Shown one piece after another: positions 28,621 to 29,030 of a stretch of 46,302 nucleotides of DNA. The position numbers and the translations under genes were made by a program. The notes under the pieces were generated by a model that saw only the letters and a list, made by a program, of their open reading frames with translations, was not told where the DNA came from and made no database searches. Location: the NCBI GenBank assembly GCA_964443405.1, contig CAYUDB010000002.1, positions 1-46,302 on the forward strand. The letters run 5' to 3'. Source of the DNA: an uncultured bacterium. Lineage in GTDB: Bacteria > UBP14 > UBA6098 > B30-G16. The stretch's first letter is position 1. Each line of letters begins with the position of its first letter.

Positions 28621-29030
28621 CTTATAGAAAGTAGCAAAAATGTTTATGAAAGTAGCATTAAAGTTATCAGAAAACTATTACTTTTGTCAAAAACGACGCT
28701 ACTTTGATGAACTTTAACGCTACTTTGATAAACTTCGACGCTACGACGATTAACTTTAATGCTACGACGCACAACTTTGACGCTACTTTTGACAACTTCG
28801 GTGCTACGATGATGAACTTCAACGCTACGACGATGAACTTTGATACTACTTTGCTTAACTTTGATGCTACTTTGCTGAACTTCAACGCTACGACAATTAA
28901 CTTTGATCCTACTTTCGAGACTTTCGATGCTACTTTCTAGGCTTTTGATGCTACTTTTTAGAACTTTGATGCTACGATGATGACTTTCGACGCTACTTTC
29001 GACAACTTCGACGCTACGATGGTTGACAAC
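28621..29030. repeat. 21-bp tandem array: 16 direct units plus 2 inverted units
   Basis: GCTAC core at 28698+21n through 29013 (consensus AACTTYRAYGCTAC plus 7 variable nt); reverse-complement cores GTAGC at 28631 and 28652. Confidence 0.95.

Follow-up and report, generated by a model that had tools for sequence, protein, structure and literature searches.

The 46,302-nt window analyzed here is a whole stretch of contig CAYUDB010000002.1, from an uncultured bacterium of the UBP14 lineage, and it carries an array of sixteen direct 21-bp repeats upstream of a minus-strand gene (27373–28548) for a 391-aa protein of an uncharacterized family. We regard it as settled that the array is the cis-linked, non-coding control region of that gene. 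On the evidence of the loci compared, array and gene form a module that is inherited with the gene family over deep divergence. The repeat core drifts between lineages, the 21-bp period is constant in all of them, and whole units are gained and lost between strains. Our tentative proposal for how the module works is that the array is a two-helical-turn phased series of predicted protein-binding DNA sites that controls the gene. The parts of the module are the following, where no strand is given for the repeat elements.

28689–29024: long arm of sixteen direct 21-bp units (register print, pattern search, Tandem Repeats Finder periods 21 and 63, lag-21 identity).
28668–28688: degenerate unit at the arm junction (register print; its end, TAC followed by TTTTGTC, resembles a decayed unit).
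28626–28667: short gene-proximal arm of two opposite-orientation units (repeat and pattern searches, register print).
28553–28560, minus strand: ribosome-binding site GGAGGTGG, 4 nt before ATG 28548 (sequence).
27373–28548, minus strand: gene that the array serves, encoding the 391-aa protein (open reading frame, homologues, AlphaFold, Foldseek).

The sixteen units of the long arm run consecutively in a 21-nt register with zero insertions or deletions. Each consists of a 14-nt core, AACTTYRAYGCTAC on the plus strand and GTAGCRTYRAAGTT on the gene strand, followed on the plus strand by seven variable bases (N7). Nine units match the core perfectly, three have one mismatch, two have two, and two, at 28689 and 28941, have three. 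When up to two mismatches are allowed, the core pattern is found 16 times in the whole window, against 2.75 matches expected, and 0 of 100 shuffles reach that number; 14 of the matches are plus-strand units and one is an inverted unit. Self-identity at lag 21 is 0.69–0.71 at the array compared with a window mean of 0.30, and other lags from 15 to 29 stay at or below 0.42 throughout the window. A preliminary description of this DNA, made from the letters alone, had reported sixteen units of a constant 14-nt core plus N7, and the register print and the pattern search both agree with it. It had also distinguished two N7 classes, those starting with TTT (T) and those starting with GAC or GAT (G). 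Both are seen, along the array as T T G G T G G T T G T T T G T G, and the 63-bp higher-order repeat detected by Tandem Repeats Finder matches this class order. That 63-bp structure, together with the exact 21-bp gain or loss between strains of a related species described below, upholds the earlier suggestion of duplication over spacer acquisition. An Rfam search returned nothing at gathering score or at E values up to 1.

The array sits in a 1.5-kb gap between the minus-strand gene and a plus-strand gene that begins at 30035. Of two inverted units described earlier, one contains an exact core on the minus strand (28652–28665); the other, at 28631–28644, is only a weak match with three mismatches, although it is spaced exactly 21 bp from the first. 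Their singling out was well judged, as a gene-proximal inverted arm turns out to be conserved architecture in the relatives. Read on the minus strand, the plan in the window is sixteen units, the degenerate unit, two inverted units and the ribosome-binding site. The array had been placed about 70 bp upstream of a gene with FN3 (fibronectin type III) domains. The start of that gene is corrected here: it is most likely ATG 28548, behind GGAGGTGG, and the inverted units stop about 77 bp upstream of it.

The 391-aa protein has no family in Pfam, PADLOC or NCBIfam. Its AlphaFold model has a predicted local distance difference test (pLDDT) score of 88.9 and predicts an N-terminal bundle that contains two helices, each some 60 residues long, and behind it a pair of FN3 domains. 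Foldseek and a sequence search of PDB gave matches only to FN3 domains, including tandem ones. A word-indexed search found 12 relatives of the protein, and many others came from a profile search, among them dozens of proteins of 220–560 aa that match from residue 1; the N-terminal helical domain is carried by dozens of clusters at 50% identity. The PHROGs search gave a single weak match, to "major tail protein", on the FN3 part (residues 203–309). The sole viral match, in locus L033 (IMGVR_UViG_3300028832_000194, 1938–2042), covers only the linker motif around GFVPKSQIW (query residues 195–229). These two matches hint that the linker and first FN3 domain are common with phage tail proteins. 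A phage origin was considered and rejected; viral contigs do not contain the array pattern.

A scan of a genome collection yielded only distant relatives, and in all some 30 loci were fetched whose homologues have 22–47% protein identity. In nearly every locus with enough upstream DNA there is an array of exactly 21-bp period, 150–450 bp long, ending 0–150 bp before the start codon. Such arrays precede the homologue in L001, L003, L005, L006, L007–L010, L013, L017–L025, L028, L029 and L030. In the same test, up to sixteen control lags gave no windows in most loci, one in L021 and a few in L007 and L008. Neighboring genes are not conserved among the loci, which indicates that gene and array travel together. 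That the array is part of a module conserved with the family of the gene next to it is beyond the reach of a reader of the window alone.

The plan on the gene strand is the same in most arrays, that is, a long direct arm, a short arm of one to six inverted units, and then the ribosome-binding site; in L003, L005 and L006 the two arms are about equal. The cores differ. The core is TTRCAATGACC in L001 and L013, TCATTGACAYAAG in L007, only ACGT in L030, CCGAGACC in L005 and L006, GCCACGG...TTTGATT in L018, and TGATT..GTGGT in L022 and L025. A universal core motif across all lineages was rejected. Cores of the distant clade nevertheless share the words CCGAG, CCAC/GTGG and TTGAT, so that these arrays have a shared ancestry and were passed down along with the gene. 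The possibility of a homology-driven invertible promoter at the arm junction was also rejected, as in the boxA clade (see below) the arms meet head-to-head with nothing between them. At three such junctions, in L018 (about 493–506), L022 (289–300) and L025 (1712–1723), the meeting arms create perfect TTGAT-N4-ATCAA palindromes. This is presumably the FNR/CRP-type consensus, and its presence could simply follow from how the units are made up, or could mark a true dimer site at the dyad.

Two pairs of relatives' loci, L007/L008 and L022/L025, carry the strain comparisons. L007 and L008 encode an identical downstream protein, and all 18 differences between their coding sequences are at third positions (18 of 397 third positions). 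One exact 21-bp unit separates their arrays, along with numerous substitutions, almost all of which are non-synonymous in the called open reading frame (ORF). Comparing unit number among strains, as had been advised for the window, thus uncovered a difference of a single exact unit in this related species. L022 and L025 have coding sequences that are 73% identical. From the arm junction to the ATG they are 94% identical without an insertion or deletion, and the approximately 80 nt upstream of boxA are 90% identical; the long arm is 77% identical and carries one 21-bp insertion or deletion.

The same plan is also found before other genes. In L026 (5944–6290) it precedes an unrelated gene whose product resembles, by eye, a PD-(D/E)xK/HsdR_N-type nuclease, and in L001 (6085–6375, minus strand) it precedes an IF-2B-family gene. 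The element is thus a portable one. The two arrays of L001 share the word TTACAAT. In L005 and L006 different selfish genes have been inserted between array and gene, judged by eye to be an IS200/RAYT-like tyrosine transposase (L005, 8265–9500) and a HicA-like pair (L006, 3360–4743), and in both loci the array is intact 1.4 kb upstream.

No conserved peptide is translated from the array, and we consider its non-coding nature settled. The preliminary description had left open a heptad-repeat peptide and had called the core variation mostly synonymous. The two ORFs behind that view do exist, a 78-aa one on the plus strand (28704–28940) and a 72-aa one on the minus strand (28667–28885). So do the stops in both frames to which it drew attention, as units 28920–28961 give TAG in the plus-strand NFDAT frame (at 28938 and 28959) and two stops in the minus-strand KVAS frame. 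Three of the six frames are open over the array, and a random 21-mer repeat gives as many. On the minus strand, the frame that is open throughout lacks a start codon before 28772, and the two array frames with start codons both carry stops. Per-column variability in 16 arrays (the window and 15 related) shows no period-3 pattern (combined p = 0.96), and the supposed synonymy is not supported; the variation is that expected of a binding-type core with few free positions. In every array, instead, the invariant columns are grouped in one block and the free ones in another. Translated array ORFs have no Pfam family match. To summarize, the array is not a peptide gene because of its stops, the missing period-3 signal and the non-synonymous strain differences, and because opposed arms cannot both encode the same peptide. 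Gene callers have made hypothetical proteins of 43–171 aa from such arrays (L001, 3–518; L007, 3806–4849; L008, 268–564; L011, 1704–2900); these calls are probably spurious and inflate protein databases.

Several properties of the module point to DNA as the level at which it acts. The first is the period, which is exactly 21 bp, two helical turns, without a sub-period: a 10–11 bp sub-period in the units is absent in general, and a 10.5-bp sub-period, as expected of simple A-tract curvature or of a half-site tandem, was rejected on this ground. The second is the occurrence of short cores in both orientations without clearly maintained helices. The third is the pairing of an invariant core block with a variable block in every array, which is a feature of DNA type. 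The fourth, in the window's clade, is the presence of promoter-like sites between array and gene. Two such sites are associated with the window array.

28663–28690, minus strand: junction promoter-like site, TTGACA (28690–28685), a 16-nt spacer and GATAAC (28668–28663), read from the sequence.
29023–29051, plus strand: outward promoter-like site at the far array end, TTGACA-17-AATAAT with TG (an extended −10), 11 of 12 consensus positions, from the promoter scan.

The −10 of the junction site overlaps the first inverted unit, and the site falls below the scan rule, by which a T is required at position 6. The long arm of the window array is thus bracketed by two divergent promoter-like sites. 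Related loci have better matches between array and gene, namely TTGACA-16-TATAAT in L030 (12 of 12) and TTGACA-16-TAGAAT in L011 (11 of 12).

The window also contains a second array of the same period.

36787–37080, no strand assigned: second 21-bp array of 14 units with a 9-bp core, CTTTCAAGC on the plus strand, and a 12-bp spacer (repeat searches).

It lies upstream of another minus-strand gene, 35801–36637, which encodes a Big_5 protein with, by eye, a lipoprotein-signal-like N-terminus. It has no inverted arm, and a promoter-like TTGACA-17-GATACT at 36685–36657 stands before the gene. By hand count the cores of the two window arrays, AACTTTGACGCT and AACTTTCAAGCT, are alike at 14 of 21 positions, and both arrays are oriented alike with respect to their genes. 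The presence of related cores twice in a genome, seen in the window and also in L001, fits a genome-specific trans factor or common descent.

We suggest, tentatively, the following arrangement. Each unit would be a sequence-specific protein-binding site on DNA, made up of a core of 5–14 bp and a free spacer, and the two-helical-turn spacing would align all units along a single face of the helix. A factor whose gene lies in another part of the genome would bind cooperatively along the long arm, which in the window spans about −40 to −375 relative to the junction promoter-like site. The opposed units over the −10/+1 region would give the same factor a handle on initiation, by repression or looping. 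The logic is that of direct iterons combined with an inverted-repeat operator. Gain or loss of 21-bp units would alter the number of sites while keeping helical phase and so could tune expression. In the distant relatives the promoter would lie upstream of the array, and the array would be transcribed as a long untranslated leader, which would explain the boxA antitermination signal found there. Of the earlier analogy to miniature guide or operator arrays, it is the operator-like half that survives, still as the best candidate; the guide half falls, the 7-nt variable parts being too short and in two classes.

A number of observations weigh against such a DNA-level role. All promoter calls are consensus matches, to a consensus that may not be the host's promoter type. 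The module encodes no DNA-binding protein; the adjacent protein is acidic (isoelectric point 4.6–6.6), for which reason it was rejected as the array binder, and its fold has no known DNA-binding domain. Pfam scans of window ORFs brought up no regulator gene. To our knowledge, sixteen tandem sites far exceed those of any LytTR or other response regulator. The remaining difficulties come from the distant loci. There the array lies behind an antitermination signal of the type found in ribosomal RNA (rRNA) operons, for which an RNA-level role is the more natural fit, and it ends 16–60 nt from the start codon; in L022/L025 the contrast of 94% identity from junction to ATG with 73% in the coding sequence is typical of a constrained messenger RNA (mRNA) leader.

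That signal is TGCTCTTTAACAA, found on the gene strand 5–20 nt before the first unit in 11 distant loci. The match is perfect in L018 and L021, while the remaining loci of this group show one or two mismatches. Ahead of it lie the upstream gene's intrinsic terminator and some 50 nt of conserved sequence. The corresponding E. coli rrnB leader sequence is CACTGCTCTTTAACAATTTATCAG (PMC10803263). TGCTCTTTAACAA is the boxA of rRNA operons. Because boxA lies upstream and no promoter-like site lies between the array and the gene, the array in these 11 loci is certainly to be read as an untranslated 5′ leader.

An alternative, which we rate as possible but doubtful, extends this situation to the whole family. 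Here array and gene would share one transcript, with the entire array as its long untranslated 5′ leader. By way of their cores the inverted units would base-pair with whichever of the redundant direct units lying upstream, to form a multi-register, ladder-like hairpin. The hairpin would set ribosome access, processing or stability of the mRNA. In the relatives, boxA and Nus factors would keep Rho from terminating transcription and may assist pairing over long distances, as they do in rRNA operons. Besides boxA and the strongly conserved stretch before the ATG, this explanation has in its favor that arrays stopping about 16–60 nt from the start codon leave no room for a promoter in many loci, that the short inverted arm is gene-proximal in most loci, and that no binding protein is part of the module. 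The occurrence of the plan before unrelated genes is as expected of a portable leader. The cores of the two arms are complementary in every locus, even though the core sequence differs between loci. Folding gives long hairpins in L003 and L005 (z about −4), and the window leader folds with z = −2.9 into a stem of about 30 bp between the inverted units and the last direct units.

Several other RNA-level measurements decide neither for nor against such a hairpin. The two arms are only 62% complementary, and their mismatches show no G·U bias (90 G·U versus 85 A·C). Sense folds better than antisense in 12 of 18 cases, which is not significant (p = 0.34), and L018 folds no better than shuffles. No base-composition asymmetry indicating Rho avoidance was found. 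Against the leader, there is no boxA within 1 kb upstream of the window array, and in the window's clade the strong promoter-like sites between array and gene would exclude the long arm from the transcript, so that an extra upstream promoter would be needed. Furthermore, we know of no RNA-level reason for a period of exactly 21 nt. The phased DNA sites are ranked above the RNA leader because they accommodate all observations if a binding factor is postulated. Should the leader nonetheless prove correct, which we think rather less than likely, it would represent an undescribed class of repeat-built RNA leader, consisting of boxA or a promoter, a long redundant 21-nt arm, a short complementary arm and a ribosome-binding site, with Nus-assisted pairing. 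Such a leader would be a copy-number-tunable switch, with the short arm docking on any register of the long arm, and it would have spread through many lineages of uncultured bacteria in the company of an uncharacterized protein family and, at times, of other genes.

It is unlikely that the array does without any factor, either as tuning or structural DNA, that is, a slippage-prone, helically phased and possibly curved spacer, or as a tolerated intergenic satellite. In the tuning version, the unit number would set the distance and geometry between upstream elements and the gene, much like contingency-locus repeat tracts. Exact unit differences between strains are in accord with this, as is the fact that no trans factor turned up. 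Between L007 and L008 the array has diverged by about 8%, faster than the neighboring gene at its synonymous sites, where 18 of 397 third positions differ, and in the window's clade higher-order repeats of 42–420 bp, all multiples of 21, surround the gene. A mere spacer or satellite is nevertheless hard to reconcile with an invariant core block that persists in every array while the spacer drifts, with the conservation of the inverted arm and its position, with strong purifying selection on the gene-proximal part, and with a module that persists across proteins of only 22–47% identity.

A repeat RNA like that of type III toxin–antitoxin systems, in which unit-length RNAs would bind, neutralize or assemble with the product of the downstream gene, is very unlikely. 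Known systems of this kind (ToxIN, CptIN, TenpIN) have a tandem array directly upstream of one protein gene, with lineage-specific repeats. The module resembles them in the tandem repeats immediately upstream of a single protein gene and in a repeat sequence that co-varies with the gene lineage, and in the boxA clade the array is transcribed. The resemblance ends with the unit length, the inverted arm, and the fold and charge of the protein. Units are 21 nt as compared with the 34–46 nt of type III systems, inverted units have no type III counterpart, and the plan also precedes unrelated genes. The protein is acidic, with a helical bundle and FN3 domains and no nuclease-like fold, and no PADLOC or Pfam match to a ToxN/AbiQ-like endoribonuclease was obtained for the downstream gene.

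A heptad-repeat peptide gene (NFDATxx on the plus strand, KVASKFI on the minus strand) or a miniature guide or CRISPR-like array can be dismissed as most improbable: the two long open frames, the core variation partly at third codon positions and the constant-core, variable-segment layout that suggest them are outweighed by the coding tests above, by the lack of a homologue for a similar 198-aa ORF nearby, by the absence of the pattern from viral contigs, by a period of 21 nt (14 + 7) where CRISPR repeats of about 23–50 nt alternate with unique spacers of similar length, by variable parts that are two duplicated classes of only 7 nt, and by the fact that no cas-like or Argonaute-like genes turned up among the main window ORFs scanned with Pfam.

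The layout can be compared with that of four further kinds of repeat. Iteron plasmids (R6K, pSC101, P1) have direct repeats of about 19–22 bp with two-turn phasing, each made of a conserved core and a variable part, inverted copies at the promoter of the neighboring gene and a variable repeat number. The window array is similar, in layout only, in its direct repeats of this length in helical phase and its inverted copies at a promoter. It differs in that the array is chromosomal and, with sixteen units, has many, in that the adjacent gene is no Rep initiator (no Rep family in Pfam or NCBIfam; a helical bundle and FN3), and in that the relatives' arrays lie inside a boxA-led transcript.

LytTR regulators bind 9-bp repeats 12 bp apart, of 21-bp period, upstream of promoters (PMC2766830). 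The 21-bp period is shared with the sites of AgrA, ComE and SilA, and the second window array is made of exactly a 9-bp core plus 12 bp. No LytTR gene turned up in the 46-kb window in Pfam scans of its ORFs. By eye, the cores fit what we take to be the LytTR consensus loosely, at 7 of 9 positions. The LytTR sites known to us are pairs, not arrays of 7–16, and have no inverted arm.

Long non-coding repeat transcripts led by boxA are known from rRNA operons and CRISPR arrays (PMC7862264). Similarly, the 11 relatives have an rrn-type boxA before an untranslated array of 250–450 nt. Unlike boxA-led CRISPR arrays, the period of 21 nt is far below repeat-plus-spacer length, no cas genes were seen, the variable parts are duplicated classes, the array leads a protein gene, and in the window the 1 kb upstream of the array is without a boxA.

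Contingency-locus repeats tune expression, as do the 7-bp repeats upstream of the hmw genes in Haemophilus. Unit gain and loss between strains upstream of a gene is common to both. The present arrays differ in having 21-bp units with a conserved core and a free spacer, arranged in two opposed arms, and in an architecture kept across deep divergence, beyond species-level polymorphism. With the type III systems included, the array layout fails a defining feature of each of the five kinds. The literature searched, on bacterial repeat arrays of 21 bp or 21 nt and on tandem repeats in combination with boxA, did not describe the module. This conserved, repeat-built control region, which occurs in many uncultured bacteria, is thus apparently undescribed.

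The window is an ordinary bacterial chromosome. Its content includes dapB, dapA, tRNA-Pro, BamA, thiE, FtsW, an SbcC-like ATPase, an MFS transporter, a GH57 enzyme and dnaN, a lipoate-ligase-like gene, and two secreted proteins of giant size that bear CHU_C or FlgD_ig sorting domains. These domains, of the type IX secretion kind, suggest the FCB group. Every tandem repeat around the gene at 27373–28548 has a period that is a multiple of 21. These repeats, all from repeat searches and none with an assigned strand, are as follows.

About 26415–26900: 105-bp repeats (5 × 21) built on a 21-bp periodicity and oriented like the inverted units (also lag identity).
26957–27351: 42/84-bp repeats directly after the stop codon of the gene.
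29141–29279: 63-bp repeat (3 × 21), 2.2 copies, in the same intergenic gap as the array.
29696–29947: 84-bp repeat (4 × 21), 3 copies, upstream of the LplA-like gene.

The downstream repeats hold overlapping ORFs of 197–198 aa (26413–27009, minus; 26639–27232, plus), and a database search found no homologue of the 198-aa minus-strand ORF in the 105-bp repeats. An array of 42/84 bp is likewise located after the gene in L011. Homologues in L007 and L030 are flanked by longer repeats, of 210 bp (10 × 21; 3111–4320) and 147 bp (7 × 21; 1819–2654), respectively. The word GATTTGACTACCTAT(T)ATATA is common to the long repeats of these two loci and absent from the window. A hairpin terminator at 26280–26303 is shared with the end of the giant gene. 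In the intergenic gap, a purine-rich stretch, GGATGGGGTGGAGGTGGAGG, occupies 29283–29305, and the copies of the 84-bp repeat contain TTGACA or TTGA-type −35-like hexamers (TTGACAAGTGAATG).

Further afield, a perfect 246-bp tandem duplication (2.0 copies, 100%) lies at 18809–19300, inside the gene for a 3100-aa protein of the CHU_C/type IX secretion system (T9SS) type. It doubles an 82-aa Ig-like segment and is possibly recent, or possibly an assembly collapse or expansion. The gene at 30035–31618 encodes a lipoate-protein-ligase-like protein with an extra C-terminal cysteine-rich DUF116 domain, a fusion that, from our general impression, seems unusual. The dnaN gene (42873–44084, plus strand) is preceded by a 780-bp gap with no dnaA directly upstream, and the cumulative GC skew rises through most of the window; the dnaN region (42093–44084) may be the neighborhood of a replication origin.

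If this reading of the array is correct, a whole gene family comes with a recognizable, strictly phased repeat element, one that annotation pipelines miss or mis-call as small ORFs (43–171 aa in L001, L007, L008 and L011). It also follows that boxA-led untranslated repeat leaders exist beyond rRNA operons and CRISPR arrays. The arrays are a natural experiment in which the period is fixed, the sequence is free, the arms are opposed and boxA is present in some clades only. Such a system could address the interplay of helical phasing, cooperative binding, Nus-dependent antitermination and repeat-number variation in gene control, and the element would offer a handle on the function of an uncharacterized protein family.

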